A stretch of DNA of 64,000 nt from Patescibacteria group bacterium (GCA_019752815.1 JAIELQ010000002.1:4739-68738); one strand, 5' to 3'. Positions 22,279 through 42,536 are shown, counted from the stretch's first letter. Notes: generated from the sequence alone by a model not told the origin. Numbers and translations are program-made.

Positions 22279-22629
22279 CTATACCGATACAGTGGCGCGT
22301 GCCTGCTTCTGTCGTTCAGCAAAATAACGCTTCAGTCGCTGCTTAGGATAAAACTTCAGTACCTCATGTTCAGGAAGCATTACTTGATGTGGTCCCGCAA
22401 CACCAGGCCGACTAGGACGCTTCACTAAAGCAAAATCGCCCAAGTGAGGCATACGCACTACTTTGTGTCGTCGAAGCTCCTGAGCCACTACCTGCACCAT
22501 TGCGACGTAAATAATAAACACTTCATCACGACTTAGGTGATTAAGTTCTTTTGACAGCAACTGATAGAAGCGTTCATCTCGAAGCAGATCTTTGTTCGCC
22601 TCGTAGTTTATTGGTGGTTTCCATGACAT
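22279..22629 (-). CDS. HU/IHF-like DNA-binding protein (divergent).
   Basis: LGDFALVKRPSRPGVAGPHQ...VLKFYPKQRLK parallels the HU arm motif GFGTFEVRER-AR-GRNP...FK-GK-LK. Confidence 0.4.
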   Translation of the reverse strand: MSWKPPINYEANKDLLRDERFYQLLSKELNHLSRDEVFIIYVAMVQVVAQELRRHKVVRMPHLGDFALVKRPSRPGVAGPHQVMLPEHEVLKFYPKQRLKRYFAERQKQARATVSV

Positions 22630-23840: not shown

Positions 23841-24250
23841 TGTTATTAGCCATAAATGAGCGTATTATTAGCTAACAATATAGTCACCTAAACCGTTTGA
23901 GCGGCATGGTGCGAATAAATAAGCCCCGTCAGAGCTAAAAAACCCATCTTGTGGGGTTTGCTCTGACGGGCCGTGTCTTGGAAACAGGACATGGTGGCTG
24001 AAAGGCCACACCCATGAGGTGGGTTTTTTGTATTTTAATTATATCTCTATGTTTAAAGGCTTCGCATTCTTGATTGTTGGTGGACTTGTCGGATGGTTAC
24101 TAGTAAATATTTTTCCAAATGATGAAATAACTCCCGTGGTTATAATTACCGCTACAACAATATTTGGATTTTATTTTATGTGGAAAGAAGCTGAGGAAGA
24201 TAACAAACGTGAATAAATCCAAATTATCAAATAATAGATGTTACTAGGTA

Positions 24251-24574
24251 ATGAACAAATTTTTCTACATCTCTACCATACTTGCATCACTGGTTACGAT
24301 TGTGACTTGGTTTTACCTTCAGAAATTAGAATCATCACCAGCTACAGTTACGACAGTTTGTCCGACTGAAAGTAATTTTGAGCAATTCTGGAATGACTGG
24401 TCCTATCAATATCTCACCGACAATCCAGACGTAGATATAGATACACAAATGGAAGACTGGAACACTCTTGTCGTTTTACATGATTGTGGTGAGGAATGGT
24501 TAAATCCGCTTGATGAAATGATTAAAGAGCATGGTGCTTCTGGTACGCCAGTGTATTGGTATGATACCCCTTGA
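24251..24574 (+). CDS. Hypothetical membrane-anchored protein.
   Basis: An N-terminal TM helix (ISTILASLVTIVTWFYL). Confidence 0.35.
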   Translation: MNKFFYISTILASLVTIVTWFYLQKLESSPATVTTVCPTESNFEQFWNDWSYQYLTDNPDVDIDTQMEDWNTLVVLHDCGEEWLNPLDEMIKEHGASGTPVYWYDTP

Positions 24575-24732
24575 AGAATTTAAAAAGCTGGTCCCTGATG
24601 GTGAAAAATTGACTGAGGATCAATTGATTATATTTCGTGACCTTATAGACGGACAGGCAGAGTTAATTCTTGACTCGTTTATGATTGAAAAGGCTAAAAA
24701 ACAACAAATGAATAATGATACAATATAGTGAC

Positions 24733-25134
24733 ATGAAAAAGTGGCTCACAAATAACAAAGTGGAGCTAGTGCTCGGCATTGGACTCACGCTCTTTTTGAT
24801 AAACCTATTTACTGAACAAGATAGTGACCTATACATCATTTCAATTCCATTAGTAGTAATCGGTGGACTGATGATGTACAAACGACACTTCCGTTCGAAT
24901 TCGTTCAATTCTTCATTCTATAGTTCGCTAGATGATATTGATGACGATGAGCTGTATGAAGATGCTAAGGAGGCGGTTCTAGAGGCTGGCAAAGCTTCTA
25001 CCTCATACATCCAACGCAAACTACGAGTTGGCTACTCCAGAGCCGCGCGCTTAATGGATATGCTAGAAGAGAAAGGTGTTATTGGTCCTGCCAACGGCGC
25101 AGAACCACGTGAAGTAAAAAACGTCCTTAAATAA
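24733..25134 (+). CDS. Small membrane protein with a C-terminal FtsK-gamma (winged-helix, KOPS-type) DNA-binding domain.
   Basis: Two N-terminal TM helices. The C-terminal sequence ([58 protein letters not shown]) matches the FtsK/SpoIIIE gamma domain consensus. Confidence 0.55.
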
Positions 25135-25182: not shown

Positions 25183-27237
25183 GTGAGAAAAATTGATCTA
25201 CATATTCACACAATCGCGGCACCTGAGGGTAAGGACGTGGCTTTTGAGTTTGATATTTCAAAATTTAAAGAATATGTTGACACTGCAGGACTACACGCAG
25301 TTGCAGTCACTAATCATAACCTATTTAACCTAGAACAATTTAACGAGATTGCAGATGCGTTACAAAACGTAAAAGTGTTCCCAGGGATTGAAATCGACTA
25401 TGAAGACGGGCATATGTTGCTTATTGCTGAAAATGACGATCTTGATGATTTTAATACCAGATGTGCATTAGTCGAAGCTGAACACAGTGCAAATGGTAAA
25501 GTCAGACACGCTAAACTAATTGAAATTTTTGAGGACGTTAGCAAGTACTTACTTATTCCGCATCACGACAAAGATCCAAAAATTGGCAGGGTTCACATTG
25601 ATGTGTTGCGTGATGAAATCACCGCAGGTGAAGTGGGGAGTCAAAAAAGATTTCATCGATTGTTAAAGAAGCAAGATGAGCTAGTACCTGTTCTTTTCAG
25701 TGATATTCGGGTTAAATCATCACTTGATGTTTCTACCGTTCAAGGTAGACAAACTTACCTTAAAACAAACGCAGAGGAATTGAGTCTAAGTGCAATCAAG
25801 GCTGCCTTGCAAGATAAAGACAAAGTATTCCTTAGTCGCACTGAAAATCATGATTTTTTTGAAATATTTTCTGATGGTCAACAACTTTCTCATGGACTGA
25901 ACGTTATACTAGGCAACAGATCCTCCGGTAAAACACACTTTTTAAACAAGATTGTTGAAATGCTAGGCAGTGATGAAAAAGGTGTTAAATACATCAAACA
26001 GTTTGAACTGACAAAAATCGATGAGAAAGAATTTAATGATCTTCTTGAGAAGCAAGGAGGTTTTGTGCGGGAAGAATATCTTAGTGCTTTCAAGCCAGTT
26101 GTACAAAACGTTTTGGAGATTGACCGCTCACTAACCTTGCAGAAGATTGAGGAGTTTACAAATTCGCTTGTTTTGTATGCAAACAATGAGCAGTTACAGG
26201 ATGAATATTCGAGAGCAGTACTTTTTAATCAGAGAAAGCTTCCAGTCAAGCGAGATGGTGGTATCAATATTCTGATTGATGCTATCAAAGCATTGTTGGA
26301 CAGCGATAGTCACAAAGACGTGATCCTGAAGCACTTACCTGAAGCTTCACTGAAAGCAGTGTTAAACGAACTAGCGTTGCAGATGAAAATAATCACGCTA
26401 GATCGTTTAAAGCGGGAGTGGGTGAACGAATTGGTAAGTGATATTTCTGATGGTCTGCAGTCACGTAGCTCAAGACCACCTGTAAAGCATAATGATCTGA
26501 GCATTTATACGGTAAAGCTTGAGAAGGAGAAGATAAGACGTTTCAACGCTGTTGCAAAAGCAGTAAAAACTAATCAGACAATTAGAAAAGAGAAGAAAGG
26601 TAAATTCACTGTGGAGGCTTATGTTAGACCGTATAGTGGCACTCAGGAAGTAAAAAATGAAAGTAAAACCAATGACATCTCCTTCAAAGATGCTTACGAG
26701 CACTATAGTGACCCCTTTAGATATCTCAGCATCCTGAAGACGAAGAATTTAGATAAAGCCTCTCTCTACAAGTACTTCTGCAAAGTAAGATATCAAGTAC
26801 TAAACGAGTACCAAAAACAAGTGTCTGGTGGAGAAATGACCGAGTTTAACTTACTCCAAAGGCTACAGGATGCTTTTCAATATGAAATGCTTCTAGTAGA
26901 TGAGCCTGAGTCATCATTTGATAACGTCTTCTTGAAGGAAAACGTTAATAAGATCTTGAAAGATATCTCTAGGGAATTACCGGTAATTGTAGTAACACAC
27001 AACAACACAGTTGGTATGTTACTGAAACCTGACTACATAATCTACACACAGCGAGAGATAGAAGAAGGCGAGGATAAGTACTATGTCTATTCAGGTTCAC
27101 CTGGAGAAAAGACTTTTAGTACTGCAGACGGCAGTAGAATGGTCGATAGCCACGCGATTCTCCTTGAGGCACTAGAAGCAGGTGCAAATGCATACAATGA
27201 CAGAAAAAGGATGTATGACACTTATAAGAAAAACTAG
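25183..27237 (+). CDS. PHP-domain phosphoesterase fused to an ABC/SMC-like ATPase; it resembles the single-gene Ppl anti-phage system.
   Basis: An N-terminal PHP motif (DLHIHT...TNHN...IPHHD), Walker A (GNRSSGKTHF) and Walker B (MLLVDEPESSFD) separated by ~320 aa. Confidence 0.55.
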   Translation: MRKIDLHIHTIAAPEGKDVAFEFDISKFKEYVDTAGLHAVAVTNHNLFNLEQFNEIADALQNVKVFPGIEIDYEDGHMLLIAENDDLDDFNTRCALVEAEHSANGKVRHAKLIEIFEDVSKYLLIPHHDKDPKIGRVHIDVLRDEITAGEVGSQKRFHRLLKKQDELVPVLFSDIRVKSSLDVSTVQGRQTYLKTNAEELSLSAIKAALQDKDKVFLSRTENHDFFEIFSDGQQLSHGLNVILGNRSSGKTHFLNKIVEMLGSDEKGVKYIKQFELTKIDEKEFNDLLEKQGGFVREEYLSAFKPVVQNVLEIDRSLTLQKIEEFTNSLVLYANNEQLQDEYSRAVLFNQRKLPVKRDGGINILIDAIKALLDSDSHKDVILKHLPEASLKAVLNELALQMKIITLDRLKREWVNELVSDISDGLQSRSSRPPVKHNDLSIYTVKLEKEKIRRFNAVAKAVKTNQTIRKEKKGKFTVEAYVRPYSGTQEVKNESKTNDISFKDAYEHYSDPFRYLSILKTKNLDKASLYKYFCKVRYQVLNEYQKQVSGGEMTEFNLLQRLQDAFQYEMLLVDEPESSFDNVFLKENVNKILKDISRELPVIVVTHNNTVGMLLKPDYIIYTQREIEEGEDKYYVYSGSPGEKTFSTADGSRMVDSHAILLEALEAGANAYNDRKRMYDTYKKN

Positions 27238-27238
27238 T

Positions 27239-27619
27239 ATGAAATATTTGGAAATCAAAAATAGTAAAGGGTTATTCAATCGCGATGGTGTCATGATTGA
27301 GATTGATCAAATTACTGCTGAAGATCTACTTACCATTATTAATCATGCTCATGAAGAAGACTTTGAAATCGATGAGTACACAGAGGCGGCACTCCCCAAC
27401 AAGGCTCATCAGCTCATTTATCAAAATATCTATATTAAACTAACAGACTTTTTGAGTGACAAGAATCAATTTAATCAGCAAGTTGATAAGTTGTACGAAG
27501 ACGCTATTGGCAAATATAATGCCGACATTCCTGCAGAAGCAGAGCCTGAAGTCGACAATATTAACGACTTTAAAGAAGCTGATGCTGAGGAAATTAACCC
27601 CGAGGACATACCATTTTAA
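27239..27619 (+). CDS. Hypothetical acidic protein of ~126 aa.
   Basis: Immediately downstream of the PHP-ATPase gene, with overlapping/adjacent starts. Asp/Glu-rich. Confidence 0.35.
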   Translation: MKYLEIKNSKGLFNRDGVMIEIDQITAEDLLTIINHAHEEDFEIDEYTEAALPNKAHQLIYQNIYIKLTDFLSDKNQFNQQVDKLYEDAIGKYNADIPAEAEPEVDNINDFKEADAEEINPEDIPF

Positions 27620-27728: not shown

Positions 27729-30584
27729 ATGGGTAAGATTACAGCGTATCACGGCAAGTATTTTGCATATGAACTTACTCGAGAATACTCGTCGGATGAT
27801 TTGCAAAAATTCACCCGTACTCTTTTGAATGCCAAAGTGGATTTAAATCCCCATCAGGTGGAGGCTGCACTGTTCGCATTTCGATCTCCGTTTTCGAAGG
27901 GTGCCATCCTCGCAGACGAAGTTGGTCTCGGGAAGACTATCGAAGCTGGTATTTTATTGTCTCAAAAATGGGCAGAGAAAAAGCGACACATCCTCCTTGT
28001 TATGCCCTCAAGCCTACGGAAACAGTGGCAACAAGAACTTGCAGATAAATTTTACTTACCATCGTTTATTTTGGAAGCGGGCACTTTTAATTCAATACGC
28101 AAAGCTGGTTCAAGCAATCCTTTTGATACAACTGAAAGAATTGTAATTTGTTCATACCACTTCGCAAAAGCAAAAGCAGAGTACATCCGTAAGGTAGATT
28201 GGGATATTGCGGTCCTTGATGAAGCGCATCGCTTGCGTAACGTATACAAAAAGGATAATAAAATTGCTAATGAGATCAAGGATGCACTAGCTGGAGTACC
28301 TAAAGTCTTACTCACGGCGACCCCACTTCAAAATTCATTGCTAGAGCTCTATGGGCTAGTCAGCTTAATCGATGAGCAAATATTTGGAGATATTGAGAGT
28401 TTCCGGTCCCAGTTTAGTCGCGCTGATGAAGATGGCTTACTTGATCTTCGTTCACGCATTCGTCCTGTCTGTCAGCGAACATTACGCAAACAGGTGCCAG
28501 ATATTCCTTACACAAACCGTATCGCAATCACTCAAGAGTTCGTTCCAACTGAGAAAGAACATCAGTTATACGAACACGTATCAAATTACCTGCAAAAAGG
28601 TGACCTGTATGCGTTACCGAAGTCCCAGCGCCATTTGATGACACTAATTCTACGTAAGTTATTAGCATCTTCATCTTTTGCTATTTCGAGCACTCTAGAT
28701 AAACTTGCTACTAAGCTTGAGCAGTATCTAGCCAGCGGTACACTTTTGGGTGATTTTGCTGATGTCCTCGATGAAGATGAGCGAGAGTTATATAATGAAC
28801 ACCAAGATGAGCACGCTGACGAGGAAGATGTTTCTAATGCTCCAACGTATACAGCTGAGCAGAAACAAGCAATAGAAAAGGAGATTCAAGAATTACGGCA
28901 CTTCCATAAGCTTGCAGAGGAGATTGAGCATAACGCTAAAGGAGATGCTCTTATTGAGGGATTACGACGTGGCTTTGAAGCGCTTCGGGCAAATTCTGCA
29001 CCAGATAAAGCAGTTATTTTTACCGAATCAACCCGCACCCAAAACTATTTGTTCGAGGTGCTAAATAGTATTCCAGATTATACCGGTAAGGTTTTGTTGT
29101 TTAACGGAAGCAATAATGACCAGCTTTCTAAACGTCTTTATGATGCATACCAAAAAAAGTATGCTGGCACTGAGCGTATCAGTGGTTCCCGGAGTGCTGA
29201 CACTCGTGCTGCAATAGTAGATGCTTTCCGCGATACAGGAATGATACTTATTGCTACAGAAGCGGCTGCTGAGGGTATAAACCTACAATTCTGTAGTTTG
29301 CTTGTGAATTATGACCTGCCATGGAATCCTCAACGCATTGAGCAACGAATTGGACGATGTCACCGCTACGGACAAAAATTTGACGTTGTCGTCATTAACT
29401 TTCTCAATAAAAAGAACGCTGCCGACCAACGAGTGTACGAGCTACTCAATGAGAAGTTTAAACTCTTTAATGGTGTATTTGGAGCAAGTGATGAAGTGCT
29501 TGGCGCCATTCAGTCAGGTGTTGATTTTGAAAAGCGTATCGTTGAAATCTACCAGACTTGCCGTAGTGAAGTGGAGATCAAGACAGCTTTTGATGCTCTT
29601 CGGGCAGAACTCGATGAACAGCTTACTAGTAAACTAACTGAAGCAAATAAAAAGCTATTCGAGCACTTTGACGAAGAAGTGCGTGAAAAACTTAAAGTTC
29701 AGGACGCGAATACAAAACAAGCACTCGCTACTCAGGAGCGGTATTTGTGGCAACTGGCACAACTGTATTTAAGTAACAGTGCTGTTTTTGAAGAAGGTGA
29801 ATATCGCCTTACACTCCACACTGCACCACGTGCCGATGTGCCTACCGGGGTGTATCATATGGATTACAGGAAGAACGAACCGCATCACTTCCGAATCGGC
29901 TGTCCATTAGCTGAATGGCTCCTTGAAACCGCTAAAAGCGCCGACACTCCGAACACTGTTTTAAAATTTGCCTACACAGGGTCAAATACTAAGATTTCTA
30001 CTCTAGAGCCACTCGTAGGCAAGAAAGGGGTATTGTCGCTGAATCTACTCACTGTAGCTGGTGCTGACAATCAAGAGCTCCTTGTATTTGCAGGTCAGAC
30101 AGCGAGTGGTCATGAACTTGATGCTGATCAATGCTATCGACTGTTTTCATTACCAGCTACCACTACAGGTGCTGAAGCTGTAGCTAATGAACAGTTGCAA
30201 AAGATTTTTGAAAAGAAGCAGCATGTGATCATGACAGATATTGCTGAACGAAACAGTAAATATTTTAATGAAGAGTCAATGAAGCTTGAAAAGTGGGCAG
30301 ACGATAAAAAAGCCTCCCTTGAGAAGGAGATGAAAGATACCAAGATTCGTATGCGAGAACTCAATCGCGAAGCCAGGCAAGAAAAAGACATGCAAAAGCA
30401 ACTTGAGATTCAAAAAAGACTCAAAGAAACAGAGCGAAAACTACGAATACTACGCCAAAACATTTTTCAAGCCGAAGATGAAATTGAGACTGAACGCGAG
30501 CGTCTCATTGCTACACTAGAAGAAAAGCTTAAGCAGAGCACAGCTGTAACGCCAATTTTTAGCATTGAGTGGGAACTCGTTTAA
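27729..30584 (+). CDS. SNF2-family helicase.
   Basis: Helicase motif I (ADEVGLGKT), DEAH box (VLDEAHRLRN) and SNF2 C-terminal helicase motifs (LIATEAAAEGINLQ...QRIGRCHRYGQ). The C-terminus has a ~300-aa coiled-coil-rich extension. Confidence 0.8.
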   Translation: MGKITAYHGKYFAYELTREYSSDDLQKFTRTLLNAKVDLNPHQVEAALFAFRSPFSKGAILADEVGLGKTIEAGILLSQKWAEKKRHILLVMPSSLRKQWQQELADKFYLPSFILEAGTFNSIRKAGSSNPFDTTERIVICSYHFAKAKAEYIRKVDWDIAVLDEAHRLRNVYKKDNKIANEIKDALAGVPKVLLTATPLQNSLLELYGLVSLIDEQIFGDIESFRSQFSRADEDGLLDLRSRIRPVCQRTLRKQVPDIPYTNRIAITQEFVPTEKEHQLYEHVSNYLQKGDLYALPKSQRHLMTLILRKLLASSSFAISSTLDKLATKLEQYLASGTLLGDFADVLDEDERELYNEHQDEHADEEDVSNAPTYTAEQKQAIEKEIQELRHFHKLAEEIEHNAKGDALIEGLRRGFEALRANSAPDKAVIFTESTRTQNYLFEVLNSIPDYTGKVLLFNGSNNDQLSKRLYDAYQKKYAGTERISGSRSADTRAAIVDAFRDTGMILIATEAAAEGINLQFCSLLVNYDLPWNPQRIEQRIGRCHRYGQKFDVVVINFLNKKNAADQRVYELLNEKFKLFNGVFGASDEVLGAIQSGVDFEKRIVEIYQTCRSEVEIKTAFDALRAELDEQLTSKLTEANKKLFEHFDEEVREKLKVQDANTKQALATQERYLWQLAQLYLSNSAVFEEGEYRLTLHTAPRADVPTGVYHMDYRKNEPHHFRIGCPLAEWLLETAKSADTPNTVLKFAYTGSNTKISTLEPLVGKKGVLSLNLLTVAGADNQELLVFAGQTASGHELDADQCYRLFSLPATTTGAEAVANEQLQKIFEKKQHVIMTDIAERNSKYFNEESMKLEKWADDKKASLEKEMKDTKIRMRELNREARQEKDMQKQLEIQKRLKETERKLRILRQNIFQAEDEIETERERLIATLEEKLKQSTAVTPIFSIEWELV

Positions 30585-33500
30585 TTACAATCGTATGGAA
30601 AATAATTTAGAAAAATTCAAAAACACACTCAGGGTCATCTTTCAAATTGACCGTGCTGACCTTGATTTCGGTATTTACCGCATTTTAAACCAGAAACATA
30701 GGGAGATTGAAAGTTTTCTTGAACAAGACTTACTCCCGCAAGTAAAAAAAGAACTAGCTACCTACGAAGCTGGTGACTTAGCAGAACTTTCACGCGAACT
30801 CGATGAGAAGGTAGCAAAATTTCGTGCCGATGGATTCACTGACGATCAAATTAGTGCTAACGAAAAAATCTCAGAATTGCGCGACAAGCTAAAAACCGCA
30901 GATCGTGTAGCGACACTTGAAAGTGAAGTTTTTTCACACCTACTTCGCTTTTTTGAACGGTATTACGAAGAGGGAGACTTTATCAGCAAACGACGCTACA
31001 AGGACGGTGTCTATGCTATTCCGTATGAAGGGGAGGAGGTAAAGTTGTACTGGGCAAACCACGATCAGTACTACATTAAAACCAGTGAACGCTTCAAAGA
31101 CTTTTCATTCAAAGTAGGTGACAAAGGTGTCCACTTTAAAATTCGTGAAGCCGAAACAGATACAAACAATAATAAAAACATCACTGGTAAGGACCGACGG
31201 TTTGTGCTTTGTGCTGAGGATTTTTGGCAAGAAGATGGCGCCGTGCTTAATATTTTCTTTGAGTATGCCAGCGTTGATGGAAAAAAGAAGCAAGAGGAGT
31301 GTAGCAAGGAATCTGTTGAGCGTATTCTTTCTGACATACCTACTCATTGGAAGACTGTTCTCGGTGCTTTGGCTCCAACAGAGAAGCAGAAAGACCGTAC
31401 TACGTTGGAAAAATTCTTGACCTCGTATACCGCGCGAAACACCTTTGACTATTTCATTCATAAGGATCTTGGTACCTTCCTAACACGCGAACTAGACTTC
31501 TACATCAAGAATGAAGTGATGTTTCTTGATGATATTGAGAACGAGACCGTCCCACGCGCAGAGCAATATCTTGCCAAGGTAAAAGTAATTCGTGCCATTG
31601 GAAAAAAGATTATTCGTCTACTTGCACAACTCGAGGACTTCCAGAAGAAGCTATGGGAGAAGAAGAAATTTGTGGTTGGTACTGGGTACTGCATTACACT
31701 GGATTTGATCCCAGAACGATTTTACGATGCTATTTTAGAAAGTGAAGCACAGCGCAACGAATGGAAGCAGCTCGGCTTTGTCGATGACACAACATCGCTA
31801 GATCATGAGTACCTACGGTCACATCCGACACTTTCCATTGATACAAAATTCTTCCCAGAATGGCGAGATGGGCTTTTGGCTACGTTCGATAATCTTGATG
31901 AGCGAGTGAATGGCGTGATGATTAATTCTGAGAATTTTGGTGCCCTTAATTTACTCCAAGAACGATACAGCGAGCAGGTCAAAACAATCTATATTGATCC
32001 ACCTTACAATACATCAGCAAGTGAAATTTTGTATAAAAATGAGTATAAGCATTCAAGCTGGTTGTCATTAATGCAAAATAGACTCGATGAGAGTAAAAGC
32101 TTGTTACATTCATCTGGAGCCATATGCGTTGCCATTGATGATGAGGAAGTATCTGTCATTAAGACACTACTGACGGGTACATTTGATAAGAATTTAGGGA
32201 CAGTACTTGTTCGTTCAAATCCAGTGGGTAGAAAAACTACTGGTAAATTTACACCTAACCATGAATATGCGCTGTTCTTCGGTAAGACTGAGTCAGTTTC
32301 CCCATCAAGCATTACAGATCCTGAAAAGGGAGTAGAAAGATATCCACTTATAGATGGTACAGGTAGATACTCCTGGTTAAATTTTATTAGAGCTGGAAAT
32401 AATGATAGACGAGAAGATAGTCCACGCATGTATTATCCCATTGTTGTAACTCCTGATGATAAAATTCGAATACCTGAAATGCGATGGATTTCCGCTGTTG
32501 CCGGTTATGAAATCACAGAGAAATTGCATGAAGGAGAGGTAGTTATATACCCAATCAAACTTGAAAACGGTATTTCAATTGAAAAAAATTGGCAACGTGG
32601 ATTCGAAAGAGTTTCGACCGAGATCGACGAATACCGTGTGAGAAGAACTCCGACGGGTATATCAATTGATTTCAAAGCTAGAATGGATATGAATGCTGCT
32701 CCCAACACTTGGTGGGGCGATAGTAAGTATGCTTCAGCGAACTACGGTGCAGCTGAACTAAAGAGTCTATTTACTGATAATCCTTTCAGTTATCCTAAAG
32801 CTTGCGCATTAGTGAAAGATTGTATTACAGCAGCTGGGCTTAAAGATAGCAATGGGTTAATCATCGACTACTTCACTGGCTCAGGGACAACTGGTCATGC
32901 TGTACTGAAATTAAATAGTGAAGACAATAAAAATGAACCCGGGAGTGGTCAACGTAAATACATTCTCGTTGAAATGGGAGCATACTTCGATACGGTTACT
33001 AAGCCACGCATGCAAAAGGTGGTATATTCAGACGAATGGTCAGCAGGGAAGCCGCAGGACGATGGTGCCACTGGGACACGCGAACACATCATCAAATACT
33101 TCAAGCTAGAAAGCTACGAAGATACACTTAATAATCTTGAACTGTTGCGGTCCGACGACCAGCAAGCTACACTTGATCAACACCCGCATTTCCGTGAAGA
33201 CTACACACTTGGTTACATGCTCGATGTTGAAGCTCGGGGTAGCGTGTTGCGCCTAGATGCGTTTCGCAATCCTTTTGCATATACCATCAAACTTGCAACT
33301 GATGTAGTAGGAGAAAGTCGCGAGACACCTGTAGACTTGGTAGAAACATTCAATTACCTCATTGGACTTAAAACAGCTTCGGTGCGCCGGCATGGTGAAC
33401 ATTTACTAGTGGTAGAAGGCGAAACTCGTGGTGGAGAAAAAACACTTGTTATCTGGCGTAATCAAGAGATAGTTACTAATGACGGACTCGATGATTTCTT

Positions 33501-33648
33501 CAAGAAGCAGAACTATAGCACGACCGACTTTGAGTTTGATCGAGTATACGTAAATGGAGACAACAATCTAGAAAACCTGAAATCAGACAGTGATCAGTGG
33601 AAGGTAGTAACGATTGAAGAAGAATTCCATAAGCGAATGTTTGCGTAG
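30565..33648 (+). CDS. N6-adenine DNA methyltransferase, beta-class and Mod-like, with a ~470-aa N-terminal extension.
   Basis: Motif IV (IYIDPPYNT) at ~aa 478 precedes motif I (DYFTGSGTTGHAV) at ~aa 770, with a ~290-aa TRD-like spacer between them. The start overlaps the SNF2 stop. Confidence 0.7.
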   Translation: MSGNSFNYNRMENNLEKFKNTLRVIFQIDRADLDFGIYRILNQKHREIESFLEQDLLPQVKKELATYEAGDLAELSRELDEKVAKFRADGFTDDQISANEKISELRDKLKTADRVATLESEVFSHLLRFFERYYEEGDFISKRRYKDGVYAIPYEGEEVKLYWANHDQYYIKTSERFKDFSFKVGDKGVHFKIREAETDTNNNKNITGKDRRFVLCAEDFWQEDGAVLNIFFEYASVDGKKKQEECSKESVERILSDIPTHWKTVLGALAPTEKQKDRTTLEKFLTSYTARNTFDYFIHKDLGTFLTRELDFYIKNEVMFLDDIENETVPRAEQYLAKVKVIRAIGKKIIRLLAQLEDFQKKLWEKKKFVVGTGYCITLDLIPERFYDAILESEAQRNEWKQLGFVDDTTSLDHEYLRSHPTLSIDTKFFPEWRDGLLATFDNLDERVNGVMINSENFGALNLLQERYSEQVKTIYIDPPYNTSASEILYKNEYKHSSWLSLMQNRLDESKSLLHSSGAICVAIDDEEVSVIKTLLTGTFDKNLGTVLVRSNPVGRKTTGKFTPNHEYALFFGKTESVSPSSITDPEKGVERYPLIDGTGRYSWLNFIRAGNNDRREDSPRMYYPIVVTPDDKIRIPEMRWISAVAGYEITEKLHEGEVVIYPIKLENGISIEKNWQRGFERVSTEIDEYRVRRTPTGISIDFKARMDMNAAPNTWWGDSKYASANYGAAELKSLFTDNPFSYPKACALVKDCITAAGLKDSNGLIIDYFTGSGTTGHAVLKLNSEDNKNEPGSGQRKYILVEMGAYFDTVTKPRMQKVVYSDEWSAGKPQDDGATGTREHIIKYFKLESYEDTLNNLELLRSDDQQATLDQHPHFREDYTLGYMLDVEARGSVLRLDAFRNPFAYTIKLATDVVGESRETPVDLVETFNYLIGLKTASVRRHGEHLLVVEGETRGGEKTLVIWRNQEIVTNDGLDDFFKKQNYSTTDFEFDRVYVNGDNNLENLKSDSDQWKVVTIEEEFHKRMFA

Positions 33649-33651
33649 GAT

Positions 33652-36600
33652 ATGGCAAAGAAAGCAGCACCAAAAAAATCACTGCGTTTTGATCAACGAC
33701 TCGTGTTACAACGATGGTTTTTGTCGCTGTTTGATGTCGCAAAATTTGAAGATTTAGCAAAAGATCTCAAAGACCCACGCTACGAAGGTTACACCGAAGA
33801 TAATCAGTCTCACTTTTACCATCATCTGACAGCTCGAACTGCTCCGTTTAGTGGTATCAGTAAGGAACAGTTATTACGGTATGACGAAAATATCTTCTCA
33901 CATACTCTGCGCATCAGTGAACGTCGCCCGAGGCGAGTAACATGGAAATATTTCCAGTATCTTTCACTTTTAGCTACCGAAGTATATTTAGATCGTTGGT
34001 TCACAAATAAAGGAGAATTATGTGCTGACCTTAATGCCTATCTAACGACTTTCAATGATGAGCTACCTGTAAGTGATCAGGTAGAGCCATTCACTGTAGC
34101 TGGTCTATCAAAATTAGCGTTTTGGTCTGCAACAGGTAGTGGGAAGACACTGCTAATGCATGTGCACCTTTTACAGTATCTCCACTATGCGAAAAAACAT
34201 CGAGTAGAAAAAGACATCAATAAAGTCATCCTTATCACACCAAATGAAGGTTTGTCTTCCCAGCACTTAGACGAACTCAGCCTTTCAAGCATCCCGGCTC
34301 GGATTTTTACTAAAGGTAACGAGACAACGTCGCTATTCGCAGGCTTCGGAAATGAAAAACCTGTTGAAATCATCGAATATACAAAACTTAAAGAAGAGAG
34401 TAAGGAGAAAACGGTAGCACTTGAAGCCTTTGAGCATAACAATCTCGTATTTATTGACGAAGGACACAAAGGGGCAGGCGGCGATGTGATTAAACGTTAT
34501 CGCGATACACTATCCGAAGACGGTTTTGCATTTGAGTATTCAGCCACATTCGGTCAGTCGATTAAGGCTGCATCTACAGGTAAGCGAAAGCTATTAGAGC
34601 AGGAGTATGCCAAAGCCATTCTTTTTGATTACTCATACCGTTACTTCTATCGAGATGGATATGGTAAAGACTATAAAATTTTGAACCTGCCGGACGACCA
34701 AGCGTTCGATGAAGCAATCAGACGTTTGTATCTCACAGCTGGACTTTTAACATTCTACCAACAGACAAGGCTCTACACCGATGACACAAAGGCATGGAAA
34801 GCGTTCTTACTGGAGCGACCGTTGTGGGTCTTTGTTGGTGGCAAAGTAACTGCAGTTCGTAAGGAAGGTGGGCGTGAAGTATCTGATGTTGTTGAAATTA
34901 TTTTATTCATTAATGACTTTTTAGAGAATAAAAACGAAAGCAAGCGACTACTGAAAGGACTTATGGACGGCAAGACCGGACTTACAGACACAGCAGGTCG
35001 TGACGTATTTGCGTCATCTTTTGGCTACATACAGACTCTGGGACTATCTACCGAAGATTTGTACAACAACATTATAGAGTCCGTATTTCGTTCACGTGGT
35101 GGTCAACTACATCTTGATAATCTAAAAGGTGTCGATGGTGAGATTGGTGTACGCGTAGGGACGGGCGAGTACTTCGGTGTTATTAACGTTGGTGACGACA
35201 AGGAGCTTTTAAAGCTTTGTGAGACAAGTGGTATTAATACTGCCGAAGTTGAGTTCAGATCATCGCTCTTTAGAAAGATTAATGACGATGACTCAACAGT
35301 TAATCTTTTGATTGGTTCAAAAAAGTTTACTGAAGGGTGGAGTAGTTGGCGTGTAAGTTTGATGGGTCTGATGCATATTGGTCGCAGTGAAGGCTCAGAA
35401 ATCATCCAGCTGTTTGGTCGTGGAGTGCGTTTAAAGGGCAAAAACTGGTCTCTGAAGCGCAGTAAAGCAATTGAGGGTAGTAATGCGCCAAAACACATTC
35501 AGGTGCTCGAAACGCTCAATATTTTTGGTGTTCGTGCTGACTATATGCGCACCTTCAAGGAATATCTCGAGGAGGAAGGATTGCCGACTACAGATACAAT
35601 CGAAGTTGTATTACCTACACTTCGTACATTTGACCCAAATCGCAAACTTAAAGTACTACGCATTCGTGATGGAGTAAGTTTCAAGCGAGATGGTGGCAAA
35701 GTAGACTTCTCCTTGACGGTCGATAAACGCATTGCTCCAGTTGAACTCGATTGCTATCCGAAGCTTCAAGCCTTGGTTGGTGGTGTATCGCAAGGAATTA
35801 CTACTGATCCAGATGTGGGTATTTTTTCACCTGTTCACTTAGCATTCTTCAACTACACTGAGCTCTACTTCGAACTGCAAAAGTATAAAAACGAAAAGAA
35901 TTGGTACAACGTAAATATTACTGCGGAAAGTATCCAGAACCTACTGCTCGATACATCATGGTATCGCTTATACATCCCACACCAGCAATTGACCATGGGG
36001 GACTATTCACGTGTACGTTACTGGCAAGAAATTGCTCTATCATTACTCAAGAAGTACTTAGTGGCATTGTACAACTATCGTAAAGCAGAATGGGAAGAAC
36101 CATATCTTGAGTATCAGGACATGCGTTCTGATGATCCTAATTTTGTTGATGAATACCGAGTGAATGTACCCGATGATGCAGACCACAACGTAGCACTAGA
36201 TAAGATACGCTTGCTCGAGAAACTACTACTCCAACTGAAGAGAGAAAATAAAAACGAAGTGCCAGACGTACAATCGTTTGCTGCAGGTAGTTTCGTACCA
36301 TTTACGTTTGATCGTCACCTCTACCACCCGCTCATTCATATCGACGAAAGTATTGGTATGCAGATAACGGTAAAACCAGTTCACTTAAACGAAGGCGAGC
36401 ATCGTTTTGTTTTAGATTTGCAGCAGTTCTACAACGAGCAACCTGACGCGTTTGCTGGTAAGGAACTTTTTTTGCTTCGCAATAAGTCAAAAGAAGGAAT
36501 TGGGTTTTTTGAAGCGGGTAACTTCTATCCCGACTTCATCATGTGGCTTGTTGACGAGATGACCCAACACGTAGTATTTATTGATCCAAAAGGTATTCGT

Positions 36601-36840
36601 AATTTGGATATATCTGATGATCTTAAGCTGAACTTTCATGCCAAACTAAAGGAAAAAGAAGCCCGACTGGGTGAGCCAAATATCAAATTACACTCGTATA
36701 TCATTTCACGCACTCCATTTGATCTACTCATCAATTACAAATCGGACCAATCTTCACTTGAAGCAAAAAATATTTTATTCCAGCACCAAGGCAGTGATTA
36801 CGTACGCAAGATGTTAAGCAAGGTGCTTATAGAGGAGTAG
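33652..36840 (+). CDS. Res-like DEAH helicase with a C-terminal PD-(D/E)xK-type nuclease motif (a Type III Res-like subunit).
   Basis: Walker A (WSATGSGKT) and motif II (FIDEGHK) in the N-terminal third. Near the C-terminus a YPDF...VVFIDPKG (PD...DxK) motif. The start lies 4 nt after the methyltransferase stop. Confidence 0.6.
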   Translation: MAKKAAPKKSLRFDQRLVLQRWFLSLFDVAKFEDLAKDLKDPRYEGYTEDNQSHFYHHLTARTAPFSGISKEQLLRYDENIFSHTLRISERRPRRVTWKYFQYLSLLATEVYLDRWFTNKGELCADLNAYLTTFNDELPVSDQVEPFTVAGLSKLAFWSATGSGKTLLMHVHLLQYLHYAKKHRVEKDINKVILITPNEGLSSQHLDELSLSSIPARIFTKGNETTSLFAGFGNEKPVEIIEYTKLKEESKEKTVALEAFEHNNLVFIDEGHKGAGGDVIKRYRDTLSEDGFAFEYSATFGQSIKAASTGKRKLLEQEYAKAILFDYSYRYFYRDGYGKDYKILNLPDDQAFDEAIRRLYLTAGLLTFYQQTRLYTDDTKAWKAFLLERPLWVFVGGKVTAVRKEGGREVSDVVEIILFINDFLENKNESKRLLKGLMDGKTGLTDTAGRDVFASSFGYIQTLGLSTEDLYNNIIESVFRSRGGQLHLDNLKGVDGEIGVRVGTGEYFGVINVGDDKELLKLCETSGINTAEVEFRSSLFRKINDDDSTVNLLIGSKKFTEGWSSWRVSLMGLMHIGRSEGSEIIQLFGRGVRLKGKNWSLKRSKAIEGSNAPKHIQVLETLNIFGVRADYMRTFKEYLEEEGLPTTDTIEVVLPTLRTFDPNRKLKVLRIRDGVSFKRDGGKVDFSLTVDKRIAPVELDCYPKLQALVGGVSQGITTDPDVGIFSPVHLAFFNYTELYFELQKYKNEKNWYNVNITAESIQNLLLDTSWYRLYIPHQQLTMGDYSRVRYWQEIALSLLKKYLVALYNYRKAEWEEPYLEYQDMRSDDPNFVDEYRVNVPDDADHNVALDKIRLLEKLLLQLKRENKNEVPDVQSFAAGSFVPFTFDRHLYHPLIHIDESIGMQITVKPVHLNEGEHRFVLDLQQFYNEQPDAFAGKELFLLRNKSKEGIGFFEAGNFYPDFIMWLVDEMTQHVVFIDPKGIRNLDISDDLKLNFHAKLKEKEARLGEPNIKLHSYIISRTPFDLLINYKSDQSSLEAKNILFQHQGSDYVRKMLSKVLIEE

Positions 36841-36850
36841 TTCGATTAGT

Positions 36851-37420
36851 ATGCCTAAATATGTTTTAACACCCGAATACCTTTCTGAGTTAGAACATTT
36901 TTTGGATGAGTTAACGTCACAAGAACAAAAGACAATCATCACGGTATATTTACGGCTGTGTTCAGATTACATCAATAACACTCTATCTGGTAAGACCGAA
37001 ACATACATACTGCCTAAAAGTACTGCTTTTATTATTCGTGCAAAATATGGCGTTCGGGTTCATTTGTTTACGCGGATATTTGATGACTCACCTCATTACA
37101 ACAAAGCACGAAGCCTAGGTATTTTAAGTTTTGATGCCGGTTTATGGTCTGCGCTGCATGATAAGCACCCTGGTCAAACTTATACATTCAGTGCTGGGGA
37201 TGGAGCAAAAACACAACATGGTGAAATATTTTTTAGAACAAAGTCCACTAAGCAGAAACACAGGTTACACCCGGATGAACTTCAAAAATTAAAAAATACC
37301 TTACCGAAATCTAACAGTAAGGTGAAAAACACAAAATCAGCTGGGAAATATAAAACGTATAAATTCATCCCAAAAGATTCGCCTGAGCCCGTGTTCTACA
37401 GAAAGAAGCAAATTTTATGA
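36851..37420 (+). CDS. Hypothetical protein of 189 aa.
   Basis: The stop overlaps the next start (ATGA). No recognisable motifs. Confidence 0.4.
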   Translation: MPKYVLTPEYLSELEHFLDELTSQEQKTIITVYLRLCSDYINNTLSGKTETYILPKSTAFIIRAKYGVRVHLFTRIFDDSPHYNKARSLGILSFDAGLWSALHDKHPGQTYTFSAGDGAKTQHGEIFFRTKSTKQKHRLHPDELQKLKNTLPKSNSKVKNTKSAGKYKTYKFIPKDSPEPVFYRKKQIL

Positions 37421-38148
37421 AAAAGAGACTGTCACAATCGACAATAGAAAAACTTAATTATTACGTATACGCTCTTATCGATCCTCGGTCAGACAAGGTG
37501 TTTTATGTAGGTAAAGGAAAGGGGAACCGCATTTATGCCCACGTAGAAGCTTCAGAGTCAGTGGATACGAATGAAGTGATGAAGATAGCAAAAATACGGG
37601 AAATTCGGGCGGCAAAAAAAGATGTAAAACATGTTGTTATTCGTCACGGACTGACAGAAGACCAAGCTTTTGCTGTTGAAGCTGCCGTGATTGACTATGT
37701 TGAGTCAGTTCAGAAGCAACAACTTACAAACCTCATGTCAGGACACTACACGGCTGAAGCTGGAATTCGCACCATTGAAGATATCGAAATCCAGTATGAG
37801 GCGAAGCCAGCTATCTTTAGTGAACCAATAATGCTTATTCGTGTGAATAGGCATTATAAACACGGCATCACAGATAAAGAGCTTTATAACGTTACCCGGC
37901 AGCATTGGCGCGTTGGTCCGCGTGCTTTCCAAATTAAGTACGCGTGCGCTGTTTACCTTGGTATTATTCGTGAAGTGTATGAAATCAAATCATGGACACC
38001 TACGGAAGTAATTAATGGACATCAGCGTCACGGGTTTAATGGACGTATAGCATCAAAAGAAGTCAGGGATAAGTATCGATACACGTCAGTAAAGCACTTG
38101 TTTAAACAAGGGCACCAAAGCTCGATCGTCTATGCAGAGCCAAACTAA
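37417..38148 (+). CDS. GIY-YIG nuclease domain protein.
   Basis: The N-terminal sequence YYVYALIDPRSDKVFYVGKGKGNRIYAHV matches the GIY-YIG signature (GIY...YVG...R...H). Confidence 0.55.
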   Translation: MKKRLSQSTIEKLNYYVYALIDPRSDKVFYVGKGKGNRIYAHVEASESVDTNEVMKIAKIREIRAAKKDVKHVVIRHGLTEDQAFAVEAAVIDYVESVQKQQLTNLMSGHYTAEAGIRTIEDIEIQYEAKPAIFSEPIMLIRVNRHYKHGITDKELYNVTRQHWRVGPRAFQIKYACAVYLGIIREVYEIKSWTPTEVINGHQRHGFNGRIASKEVRDKYRYTSVKHLFKQGHQSSIVYAEPN

Positions 38149-40634: not shown

Positions 40635-40806
40635 ATCACGTACTCGGCTCCAAACCTATCTCATGAAGCTGAATCACGTCAGCGACAAGCCCTTAGTAGT
40701 GAAGTACATACGCGATGAAGATGCTTCACTTAAATACCGTCGTGACAATGCTTTGCGCCGCGTTATCGAAATTACTATTGACTACATCAACAAAAACAAA
40801 CTATGA
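40624..40806 (+). CDS. Small basic hypothetical protein of 60 aa; a possible recombination directionality factor.
   Basis: It overlaps both neighbouring genes and lies immediately upstream of the integrase. No homology recognised. Confidence 0.25.
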   Translation: MATKSRTRLQTYLMKLNHVSDKPLVVKYIRDEDASLKYRRDNALRRVIEITIDYINKNKL

Positions 40807-42536
40807 ACAACCTCATTTCGTTAGCTATAGTGCTCGTCTGCATATACCTAAGAACTTCAACTGATAGACAGGAGCGTGATGAGACGATTAAAACTCAACG
40901 CGCAACAATAAAAAGATTCCTTGACTCAAAATATGGTCCGGGTAACTACGAGATTGTTGCTGAGTATGCTGATGATGGATACACCGGTACTAATATGAAT
41001 AGACCGATGTTGCAGCAAATGCTTCAAGACTCTCAAACCGATAAGTGGGACATCCTGGTTACGTTTGATTCAAGCCGTCTATCACGTGACTTCAGCGACG
41101 GTATCACAATCGTAGACAATATAATGCAGGCAGGAAAACAAATTCTTTACACTGACGGAAGCTCACCAAACGGGCGACCTAAACTGTTGAATCGTGTAAT
41201 GGCTGCAGTTGACGATGATGACCGCGAACGAACGGTGCGAAAGTTTCTTGAAGGAAAGAAACATCGTGCTTCACAAGGTCGAATCATGAATAGTGTTAGC
41301 GCATACGGATATACCCTTATTCCAAAGGTGGGATGGCAGGGAAGAGCTGACTATAAAGATACTGAACTAGTTATCAATCCCGATGAGGCTGTAGTTGTGA
41401 AGTTAATTTTTCATCTTGTTGGCAACGAACGCTACTCAGCAAGGCAGGTAATAAAAAAATTGATGGAGCTGGGAATAAAACCTCGCAAGAGTACGCGTGG
41501 CATTTGGGCTCATAGCAGTATCTACAATATGCTCAATAACGAAGTGTATATCGGTAATCTACGCTACGCTTCTTCTATTGCAGTAGAACCCAAGCGACAA
41601 ATTAAACGGCTCCGAAAGAAAAATATTGTAAAAACTAGTCGGATAATAAAGCCACGCAGTGAATGGCAAATCATGAGCGTACCTGCAATTCTTGAGGGAC
41701 AGGAAGGTGTCTTACTCTTTCAACGTGCCCAGGAGCAACTGAGGAGAAATAGACGAGAGGCAAAAGGGAACCGTGATCCCCACAGTTACTTACTCTCAGG
41801 TCGAATTGAATGTAGTTGTGGTTATGCTCGATGTGGCGAAGGTGCAAAAGCCTCGGGCAATCTTTACTACCGTTGCTCAGACAGGGTATCGAACTTTCCT
41901 TTAAGTACCTGTGATGTTGGTGGTGTTCGAGCTATTGATTCTGATGAAGCGGTCTGGCGCTATCTGAGTGCGTTAGTCAGCACCCCCACAGTTTTTCAAG
42001 AAGCTGTTGATGAGTACATGTCTGGATCCATGAGCAAACCAGTTAATGAAGCAGAGCTGGCTATAAGAGCGCTTCAAAAAGAAGAAGAATCACTCATCAA
42101 TGCAAGGACTCGCCTAGAAACTGCACTTCAACGCGGAACACTCGATTACGAACGCTTTGGAGAACTTAATAAAGAAAATAAAGAGAGATTGTCTGAGGTT
42201 AAGGTAAAACTCAATCAGTTGCTTGCTACACAAACTTCGGAAGGTCCGAGCATTGTTGATCCGTATTTAGCGCAGAAAATTGTATTCTACGCACAATCAG
42301 CACTTAGAGACATGAGCTTTGAAGATAAACGTCAATTTGTACTCGACACAGTAACGAAAGTCGTTGCTGTGCCAGGTGAATTGCGTGTAGAAGGAGCACT
42401 ACCCTTAGTTGAGACCTGGTCATACGACGCCATTATCTTGCCTTTACGTCAAAATAAAGCTAAGATTCCGTCACCTTTTTATTATGTCCAGTTCAAAACT
42501 ATCAGTGGGAATTGTTGGACTGCCAAACGTTGGTAA
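40803..42536 (+). CDS. Large serine recombinase (integrase).
   Basis: The catalytic motif VCIYLRTSTDRQ and the motif DSSRLSRD. A recombinase domain, a zinc-ribbon (CSCGYARCG...YYRCSD) and a C-terminal coiled coil give a length of 577 aa. Confidence 0.85.
   Translation: MNNLISLAIVLVCIYLRTSTDRQERDETIKTQRATIKRFLDSKYGPGNYEIVAEYADDGYTGTNMNRPMLQQMLQDSQTDKWDILVTFDSSRLSRDFSDGITIVDNIMQAGKQILYTDGSSPNGRPKLLNRVMAAVDDDDRERTVRKFLEGKKHRASQGRIMNSVSAYGYTLIPKVGWQGRADYKDTELVINPDEAVVVKLIFHLVGNERYSARQVIKKLMELGIKPRKSTRGIWAHSSIYNMLNNEVYIGNLRYASSIAVEPKRQIKRLRKKNIVKTSRIIKPRSEWQIMSVPAILEGQEGVLLFQRAQEQLRRNRREAKGNRDPHSYLLSGRIECSCGYARCGEGAKASGNLYYRCSDRVSNFPLSTCDVGGVRAIDSDEAVWRYLSALVSTPTVFQEAVDEYMSGSMSKPVNEAELAIRALQKEEESLINARTRLETALQRGTLDYERFGELNKENKERLSEVKVKLNQLLATQTSEGPSIVDPYLAQKIVFYAQSALRDMSFEDKRQFVLDTVTKVVAVPGELRVEGALPLVETWSYDAIILPLRQNKAKIPSPFYYVQFKTISGNCWTAKRW

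Follow-up and report, generated by a model that had tools for sequence, protein, structure and literature searches.

The window analyzed here is a 64,000-nucleotide (nt) stretch of Patescibacteria-group DNA (GCA_019752815.1 JAIELQ010000002.1:4739-68738), with positions counted from its first letter. Two adjacent plus-strand genes, A and B, are the subject of this report (Table 1). An initial annotation, made from the sequence alone, had described a 684-amino-acid (aa) open reading frame (ORF) as a fusion of a PHP phosphoesterase and an ABC ATPase, followed by a short acidic ORF, and both ORFs are present as it described them. The product of gene A is 100% identical to a hypothetical protein in a Patescibacteria-group metagenome-assembled genome, where it lies on a 72.6-kb contig.

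Table 1. Features of the A-B cassette and their positions in the window
Feature	Position	Strand	Basis
Gene A (PDC-M49A), 684-aa PHP phosphoesterase/nuclease with SMC-like ABC ATPase	25183-27237	+	ORF, GTG start; PADLOC
PHP domain, about aa 1-228 of A	25183-25866	+	Invariant motifs, Foldseek, NCBIfam TrlF match
PHP motif I, D5-L-H7-I-H9-T10	25195-25212	+	Invariant in 112 sequences; read from sequence
Last PHP motif, D174-I-R176 (D-x-R; canonical PHP is D-x-H)	25702-25710	+	D174 and R176 invariant
Walker A/P-loop, G244-N-R-S-S-G-K-T251	25912-25935	+	G244, R246, S247, G249 and K250 invariant
Helical insert between ABC lobes, about aa 281-461, with 42-residue helix 387-428	26023-26565	+	Predicted model, Foldseek
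ABC signature motif, S548-G-G-E551	26824-26835	+	Invariant; aligns with LSGGQ of HisP and ArtP nucleotide-binding domains
Walker B and D-loop, D573-E-P-E-S-S-F-D580	26899-26922	+	Invariant
H-loop histidine H606	26998-27000	+	T605-H606-N607 invariant
A/B junction, TAG-t-ATG (A stop, one base, B start)	27235-27241	+	Sequence; Met start of B conserved
Gene B (PDC-M49B), 126-aa acidic protein	27239-27619	+	PADLOC PDLC04682; directly 3' of A in 78 of 80 genome loci
B core, aa 1-96: sheet of three beta-strands, then a short and a 39-residue helix; motif N-K-A-H-Q-I-I-Y conserved	27239-27526	+	Model, alignments
B tail, aa 97-126: disordered acidic linker leading to E-D-I-P-F (tip codons 27602-27616)	27527-27616	+	pLDDT (predicted local distance difference test), alignment

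Both proteins matched profiles of one family in PADLOC, PDC-M49. A aligned over residues 1-682 to positions 1-673 of the 674-position PDC-M49A profile PDLC04680 (E 3.1e-228), and the further PDC-M49A profiles PDLC04678 and PDLC04679 also matched. Residues 1-94 of B covered positions 1-95 of 97 in the PDC-M49B profile PDLC04682 (E 1.3e-29). Matches this strong are not attributable to chance. The gene order of PDC-M49, A then B on the same strand, is present in the window. This family is a two-gene candidate predicted by "guilt-by-embedding"; the PDC candidates were discovered embedded in restriction-modification (R-M), BREX and DISARM loci, the supplement lists two cassettes "assigned as candidate PDC-M49", and the authors call their 145 PDC systems untested (Payne et al., bioRxiv 10.1101/2024.01.29.577857). 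The likeness extends from full-length hidden Markov model (HMM) matches to the same order, strand and tight coupling of the genes and the same R-M-associated habit. The window copy differs in its Patescibacteria host and in a B tail of roughly 30 aa, resembling the tip of single-stranded DNA (ssDNA)-binding protein (SSB), that falls outside the 97-position PDC-M49B model. That the cassette is PDC-M49 is virtually certain. The earlier view of the locus as a defense candidate is thus borne out by PADLOC; the candidate is already catalogued, and what is new is the Patescibacteria copy with a tailed B.

Conservation in A was read from an alignment of 112 homologs at 41-81% identity. In the N-terminal part, D5, H7, H9, T43, N44, H45, E70, H127, D174 and R176 are invariant and H77 is kept in at least 90% of the sequences. 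The motifs DLHIHT, TNHN and IPHHD, singled out earlier as marks of a PHP domain, are all there and mostly invariant; E70, H77, D174 and R176 are further conserved positions that the initial annotation did not name. Invariant positions of the ATPase part are the P-loop G244-x-R-S-S-G-K250, Q273, S548-G-G-E551, D573-E-P-E-S-S-F-D-N581 and H606. Walker A and Walker B stand 323 residues apart, in agreement with the ~320 aa and the SMC/OLD-like ABC layout first noted. Beyond these two motifs A carries the full ABC set, with Q-loop (Q273), signature, D-loop (SSFD) and H-loop (H606), and its C-lobe aligns to the nucleotide-binding domains of ABC transporters.

The AlphaFold model of A (mean pLDDT 88.3) was compared with the PDB by Foldseek. 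Its N-terminal ~230 residues resembled the PHP domains of PolC (3f2c, E 1.8e-5, root-mean-square deviation 5.6 over 200 columns), Pol III alpha (4gx8 and 2hnh), the TrpH-like protein BAD_1165 (3o0f) and RNase AM (7ug9 and 9etk). The remainder resembled SMC-family ABC heads, the top matches being JetC, RecN, MukB, Smc, cohesin, condensin and SbcC, and homologs of A carry precomputed PF02463 (SMC_N). Pfam gave nothing above threshold for A or B of the window. Pfam PHP (PF02811) had no match to A at E<=0.01, and it is precomputed in many homologs 42-45% identical to A. A is assigned as a PHP protein because of its conserved motifs, the PF02811 matches of its homologs and its fold similarity. No TOPRIM domain was matched in A, which ends with the ABC C-lobe, and no close solved structure was found by sequence for A, a Ppl/TrlF relative or PDC-M49A. 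The protein thus begins with a PHP phosphoesterase domain, and its C-terminal part is an ABC ATPase head of the SMC/Rad50-like kind whose helical insert is short. Its top match was not a housekeeping PHP protein, and the PHP catalytic residues are retained save for a family-wide histidine-to-arginine change in the last motif.

The initial annotation had further matched A to the single-gene anti-phage system Ppl. In both proteins an N-terminal PHP domain is followed by an ABC-type NTPase in one polypeptide, and the two share a similar defense-island and R-M context. However, the PADLOC Ppl HMM (PDLC02208) gave no match to A even at E<=10, with the full protein or with either half, and PplA membership was rejected on this result. 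A TrlF control protein did match that HMM (E 2.5e-35). The best NCBIfam model for A was NF045780, the TrlF family AAA-like ATPase, at 76.2 bits against a cutoff of 350 (E 2.4e-21) and over residues 2-352 only; TrlF (NF045780, also NF045781 Spaf_1101) is the best curated-family match for the PHP and P-loop half.

The TrlF control protein comes from the E. coli IncC plasmid pNDM102337 (locus L081; NC_019045.2 132577-143458), where its gene (L081:4962-7604) encodes 880 aa. The operon there runs hsdR, trlF, a gene for a 387-aa "RNA-binding" protein, hsdS and a PrrC-like gene (PrrC homology, E 1.6e-116), so this trlF likewise lies inside a type I R-M operon. The 387-aa "RNA-binding domain" protein has weak matches to domains associated with prokaryotic Argonautes. 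This TrlF also matched PDC-M49A through its PHP domain (E 6e-17). By hhalign, the family profile of A aligned to the C-terminal ABC lobe of TrlF at 97.6% probability, including the terminal "LEAG..AY..R..Y" helix. In BLASTP the DxHxHT, TNHN, GxE, GxH and xxH motifs of the two PHP domains aligned motif for motif. The last motif reads SDIR in A and CDAK in TrlF; D-x-[K/R] is common to both and the canonical D-x-H is absent.

The last-motif histidine serves the third metal site in PHP enzymes such as YcdX. The binuclear metal core of A would then remain whole, and the third metal may be replaced by a basic side chain. All 112 PDC-M49A homologs have D-x-R and a TrlF/Ppl-like protein has D-x-K, suggesting a PHP subtype whose third metal site is altered. 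A also differs from these relatives. A has 684 aa against the 894 positions of the Ppl model, and TrlF proteins have 880-944 aa; Walker A-B spacing is about 480 in TrlF and about 323 in A; and the downstream partner of TrlF is the 387-aa protein, with no B homolog. PDC-M49A, TrlF and Ppl are thus members of one PHP-ABC superfamily, within which A represents a separate family, shorter and with its own partner. The earlier term "Ppl-like" thus holds for distant homology to Ppl/TrlF and fails for family membership.

The relation between A and B was examined in a scan of about 185,000 species genomes, which returned 337 relatives; 80 loci were fetched (L numbers below). A B homolog lies immediately downstream of A on the same strand in 78 of the 80 genome loci, in 3/3 viral contigs and on one Enterococcus plasmid. 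One of the two exceptions (L047) stops at a contig edge. The other (L032:11990-12500) keeps a B remnant, the first ~44 residues being fused to a MarR-like sequence, and its A is apparently intact. B is truncated at 69 aa in L056 (L056:11808-12215), where A again appears intact. Damaged B beside apparently intact A in these two loci may bear on the question of whether A is toxic when B is missing.

The start of B overlaps the end of A by 20-23 nt in 71/78 loci, and a 1-4 nt spacer is found in the Patescibacteria clade. Pairwise distances in A tracked those in B (r = 0.88), against a maximum of 0.13 in 500 permutations of the labels. An exhaustive profile search yielded 362 B-like representatives, the best 150 of which are all small stand-alone proteins of 65-167 aa and never domains of larger proteins. 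We conclude with high confidence that A and B form an obligate pair. B is an integral subunit and not a bystander, being co-translated and co-inherited with A. The suggestion that the ~126-aa acidic ORF at 27239 might be a partner, to be checked by its conservation beside homologs of A, has therefore been upheld.

The label "single-gene" did not survive, since B is near-obligate, translationally coupled and co-evolving, and PADLOC lists PDC-M49 as a two-gene system. A Ppl-type system in which A alone defends and the small ORF is unrelated or dispensable would explain the shared PHP and ABC NTPase layout and the distant homology of A to Ppl/TrlF, and Ppl itself is described as single-gene. We nevertheless consider it very unlikely. 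Besides the missing Ppl HMM match and the presence of B in nearly every locus, overlapping the 3' end of A in most and co-evolving with it, the Ppl and TrlF models exceed A in length by about 200 aa.

B has an isoelectric point of 4.15 and a net charge of -20, half of which comes from its last 30 residues. The predicted model comprises a beta-sheet (residues 2-21), a short helix, a 39-residue helix (55-93) and a disordered tail, with pLDDT of about 80-88 in the core and below 50 for residues 100-119. Searches for relatives of B gave little: the best Foldseek match in the PDB had E = 2, a PDB profile search reached E of about 0.03 at best (to RNA polymerase A''), and no Pfam family was matched consistently among 61 members. 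Two possible origins of B, as a piece split off from a longer protein of the Ppl/TrlF kind and as a repeated part of A, were rejected on hhalign probabilities of 0.1-0.2%.

The 337 relatives are distributed over Patescibacteria, Bacteroidota, Alpha-, Beta-, Gamma- and Deltaproteobacteria, Firmicutes, Omnitrophota, Elusimicrobiota, Spirochaetes, Planctomycetota and Gemmatimonadota. Same-strand neighbors within 60 nt were present in 17 of 61 non-redundant loci, and R-M domains predominate among these close neighbors, namely ResIII (8), HSDR_N (5), N6_Mtase (5), Methylase_S (4) and Eco57I (4). The cassette sits at different points of type I operons: between hsdM and hsdS hsdR (L005), between hsdM hsdS and hsdR (L008 and L012), and after hsdR hsdM hsdS (L015). 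In L018 and L035 it stands next to hsdR and a YgjP-like gene. A type III-like Mod gene adjoins it in L002 and L004. Looser flanks hold MADS, PglX, AriA, PtuA, PbeA and type IV enzymes. Placement in R-M operons elsewhere reproduces independently the "embedding" signal by which PDC-M49 was defined, and confirms a habit of lodging inside such operons, as PrrC does.

A-B was also found on 100 plasmid records, mostly of Enterococcus and Staphylococcus and many of them conjugative. On the Enterococcus faecalis plasmid NZ_CP124883.1 (L082, 21574-35601) the cassette lies between resolvase/recombinase and Mu-like transposase genes, and a DUF4062 protein, an "abortive infection family protein" and a RelE/ParE toxin-antitoxin pair are encoded within 5 kb. 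A-B in this setting was found on common E. faecalis plasmids. The label given to A on NZ_CP124883.1 by PGAP, "histidinol-phosphatase", is misleading. A tblastn search of 50,697 GenBank phage records gave no match that would point to a phage origin; in IMG/VR only three contigs carry A, each with B. The cassette moves horizontally across many phyla and is often inserted in or beside R-M operons.

In the window the cassette belongs to an apparent island at about 21.9-42.5 kb, flanked by a peptidase S49 gene on one side and ychF on the other. The last gene of the island, for a large serine recombinase of 577 aa, ends at 42536, inside the mechanical ychF ORF at 42409-43590 (window 40803-43590). 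Integration of the island at the 5' end of ychF, or within that end, is probable. The early placement of the genes upstream of an SNF2/methyltransferase/Res module on a mobile element is accordingly correct, the element being an integrated one with a large serine recombinase. That downstream module (27729-36840) encodes a DrmD-like SNF2 protein, a 1027-aa type III-like Mod and a 1062-aa type III Res. The SNF2 helicase scored 707 bits against NF038318, below the cutoff of 950, and its ORF shares 20 nt (30565-30584) with that of Mod. DISARM comprises DrmA (helicase), DrmB (DUF1998) and DrmC beside DrmD and a methyltransferase; DrmA, DrmB and DrmC were not found in the window. The module is not canonical DISARM and may be an SNF2-augmented type III R-M system.

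One could picture A and B as accessory subunits of a five-gene machine with SNF2, Mod and Res, of a DISARM- or type III R-M-like kind. All five genes share a strand, B is only 109 nt from the SNF2 gene, SNF2 resembles DrmD, and PDC candidates were first noticed embedded in R-M, BREX and DISARM loci. Homologs of SNF2, Mod and Res, however, occur near A-B in only 2/80, 5/80 and 0/80 loci, respectively, and membership of A-B in the module was rejected on this co-occurrence. Elsewhere the pair keeps company with type I, type III or IIG systems or with no R-M genes, and on plasmids it stands between transposase and recombinase genes. Together with the absence of DrmA, DrmB and DrmC, this makes a five-gene machine extremely improbable. 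Because SNF2, Mod and Res are rarely near A-B, their link to it is one of neighborhood and not of system membership. A-B is an autonomous two-gene cassette on an integrated defense island.

The best explanation of the data, which we favor with moderate confidence, is an autonomous PDC-M49 cassette combining a Ppl-like nucleotide-gated nuclease, A, with a regulatory or adaptor subunit, B. A function of the pair in defense is itself probable. How A would act is suggested by analogy. E. coli Ppl is reported as an ssDNA 3'-5' exonuclease that is inhibited by nucleoside triphosphates (NTPs) bound to both its PHP and NTPase domains. Its reported trigger is a fall in NTPs combined with the 3'-OH ends that phage homing endonucleases produce (review PMC12904381; PMC13434339, which cites Xu et al. 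2026).

We hypothesize that A dimerizes through ATP-sandwiched ABC heads and is a nuclease gated by nucleotide state, probably also by DNA ends; this view is taken because its domains and its active-site variant are common to Ppl/TrlF. By analogy with E. coli Ppl, its activity would be that of a 3'-5' exonuclease, held silent while NTPs stand at normal levels and set free to degrade phage (or cellular) DNA once NTPs are depleted or phages create DNA ends. Such a Ppl-like nucleotide-gated DNA exonuclease mechanism is put forward tentatively, as a proposition that may well prove wrong. B would be a stoichiometric regulatory or adaptor subunit, a role suggested by its tight translational coupling, its co-evolution with A and its long helix. 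That helix may dock on the helical insert of A, in the manner of kleisin or Mre11 helices on SMC/Rad50 coiled coils. In the Patescibacteria clade, the DIPF tail would add a contact, either with proteins that read the SSB C-terminus or with the DNA-binding surface of A itself.

Several points weigh against this explanation. PDC-M49 is a prediction only, of which no member has been assayed (Payne et al.). The canonical final PHP histidine is an invariant R176 in A, so that one canonical ligand is missing, and with D-x-R in this place the chemistry of A could differ. Since the Ppl HMM does not match A, carrying the substrate and trigger of Ppl over to it means reasoning across a distant homology. 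The role of B is conjecture, and the protein has no recognizable fold or family. Promoter- and terminator-like sites around the cassette were no more numerous than in shuffled sequence and are uninformative. The comparison ties PDC-M49 to a candidate mechanism, as a compact two-subunit cousin of the Ppl/TrlF PHP-ATPase exonucleases. The link to Ppl makes PDC-M49 mechanistically testable. If the locus is ordinary, it is a correctly classified PADLOC candidate.

Action on RNA was weighed as well. The pair could be an abortive-infection or toxin-antitoxin-like module, with a PHP domain acting as a 5'-3' exoribonuclease like RNase AM/TrpH and with B as an acidic, antitoxin-like inhibitor lost on infection by displacement or degradation. 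This is suggested by the Foldseek matches to RNase AM (9etk, 7ug9) and TrpH-like BAD_1165, by the small size, acidity and translational coupling of B, and by the embedding of A-B in type I R-M operons in the manner of PrrC, whose gene shares an operon with TrlF on pNDM102337. We regard it as unlikely. The PHP domains of PolC and Pol III match A as well as or better than RNase AM, and the only characterized relative, Ppl, is reported as an ssDNA exonuclease. A is apparently intact in L032 despite its truncated B, which speaks weakly against an A that is strictly toxic.

The tail of B was a further point of interest within the PDC-M49 cassette. The window protein ends in ...EEINPEDIPF. Among the 78 loci, about 30 extra C-terminal residues in B are confined to the Patescibacteria (Candidate Phyla Radiation, CPR) clade; the window, L001-L003, L005-L007 and most of 15 metagenomic homologs have them, and homologs from other phyla lack a tail. 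Across 16 CPR-clade B homologs an (E/N)-D-I-P-F tip is conserved at the extreme C-terminus and the acidic linker before it is variable. Only 8 of 9,982 mechanical ORFs of the loci end in IPF, and six of the eight are these B proteins. DDDIPF is the conserved C-terminal tip of SSB, which docks at least 17 genome-maintenance proteins (PMC5872125, PMC10018359). The B tail has the same layout and motif, a disordered acidic linker followed by a conserved (E/N)-D-I-P-F. B differs in lacking the OB (oligonucleotide/oligosaccharide-binding) fold of SSB, its core being beta-beta-beta, alpha, long-alpha with no PDB or Pfam match. B is consequently not an SSB, and the resemblance would be one of tail mimicry.

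Clade-specific basic residues in A were sought as a docking site for DIPF. Thirteen positions were found, most of which also occur in L004, whose B is tailless; the signal is thus confounded by phylogeny and allows no conclusion on docking. A limited literature search found no precedent for mimicry of the SSB tip in defense. It is doubtful, although conceivable, that the tail of the Patescibacteria clade is a true functional mimic of the SSB C-terminal tip that plugs a PHP-nuclease/ATPase complex into the SSB interactome. Were it so, the complex might be recruited to replication and recombination proteins that read the SSB tip. Alternatively, the tail could be a bait for phage proteins that target this tip, or could self-inhibit A until displaced by ssDNA or a competitor. 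To our knowledge, SSB-tail mimicry would then be the first case of such a sensing or targeting device in immunity. It would also give a concrete handle on how the Ppl-related PDC-M49 family recognizes infection.

An SSB-tip-like tail would also suit a repair factor, and the cassette may have no part in immunity. It could act in DNA repair or DNA-end processing, as an SbcCD/RecN-like PHP-ATPase, or in maintenance of the mobile elements that carry it. The ATPase does resemble RecN, SbcC and SMC heads, the cassette is borne on conjugative plasmids and integrative elements, and no functional test of PDC-M49 exists (Payne et al.). Set against this are its patchy spread (337 of about 185,000 species, in many phyla), its repeated position inside R-M operons and beside other defense genes, and its homology to a validated defense protein family. 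A role outside immunity is in our judgment distinctly improbable.

Set beside other known systems, A shares with Mre11-Rad50/SbcCD, Wadjet JetC and Lamassu LmuB the coupling of a metal-dependent phosphoesterase nuclease to an ABC head whose insert is helical or a coiled coil. Its nuclease is a fused PHP domain, in contrast to the separate calcineurin-like Mre11/SbcD or the TOPRIM of these systems, and its insert is much shorter. No kleisin-like partner as in SMC systems is recognizable for A, B having no detectable fold relative. The logic of an ABC-ATPase sensor with a nuclease effector is also that of OLD/Gabija GajA, PARIS AriA-AriB and Septu PtuA-PtuB, whereas the effector in A is PHP, with no TOPRIM or HNH. 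Weak HMM matches of A to AriA, GajA, AbiLi, mad8 and HEC-02 (E 1e-5 to 1e-6) cover only ATPase motifs, in the P-loop and signature regions.

The remaining genes of the island extend its defense content. At 36851-38148, a 189-aa ORF without family match shares 4 nt with the start of the next ORF, which encodes a 243-aa GIY-YIG protein and PD-T4-3 homolog (E 1.8e-47). Descriptions of PD-T4-3 usually give it as one gene, and the coupled upstream ORF may be its partner. PDC-M49, the SNF2 and type III-like R-M module and the PD-T4-3 homolog thereby make up a multi-system island on a Patescibacteria integrative element; immunity in Patescibacteria is, as far as we know, poorly explored. A gene for an HU/IHF-like DNA-binding protein (PF00216, E 3e-8) lies at the left island edge on the minus strand (22279-22629). 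Just upstream of A, a run of small predicted membrane or unknown proteins occupies 24019-25134. The last of these has 139 aa, with an N-terminal hydrophobic region and an FtsK-gamma (KOPS-binding winged-helix) domain (PF09397, E 5e-28); a homolog of it was found near A-B in 1/80 loci.

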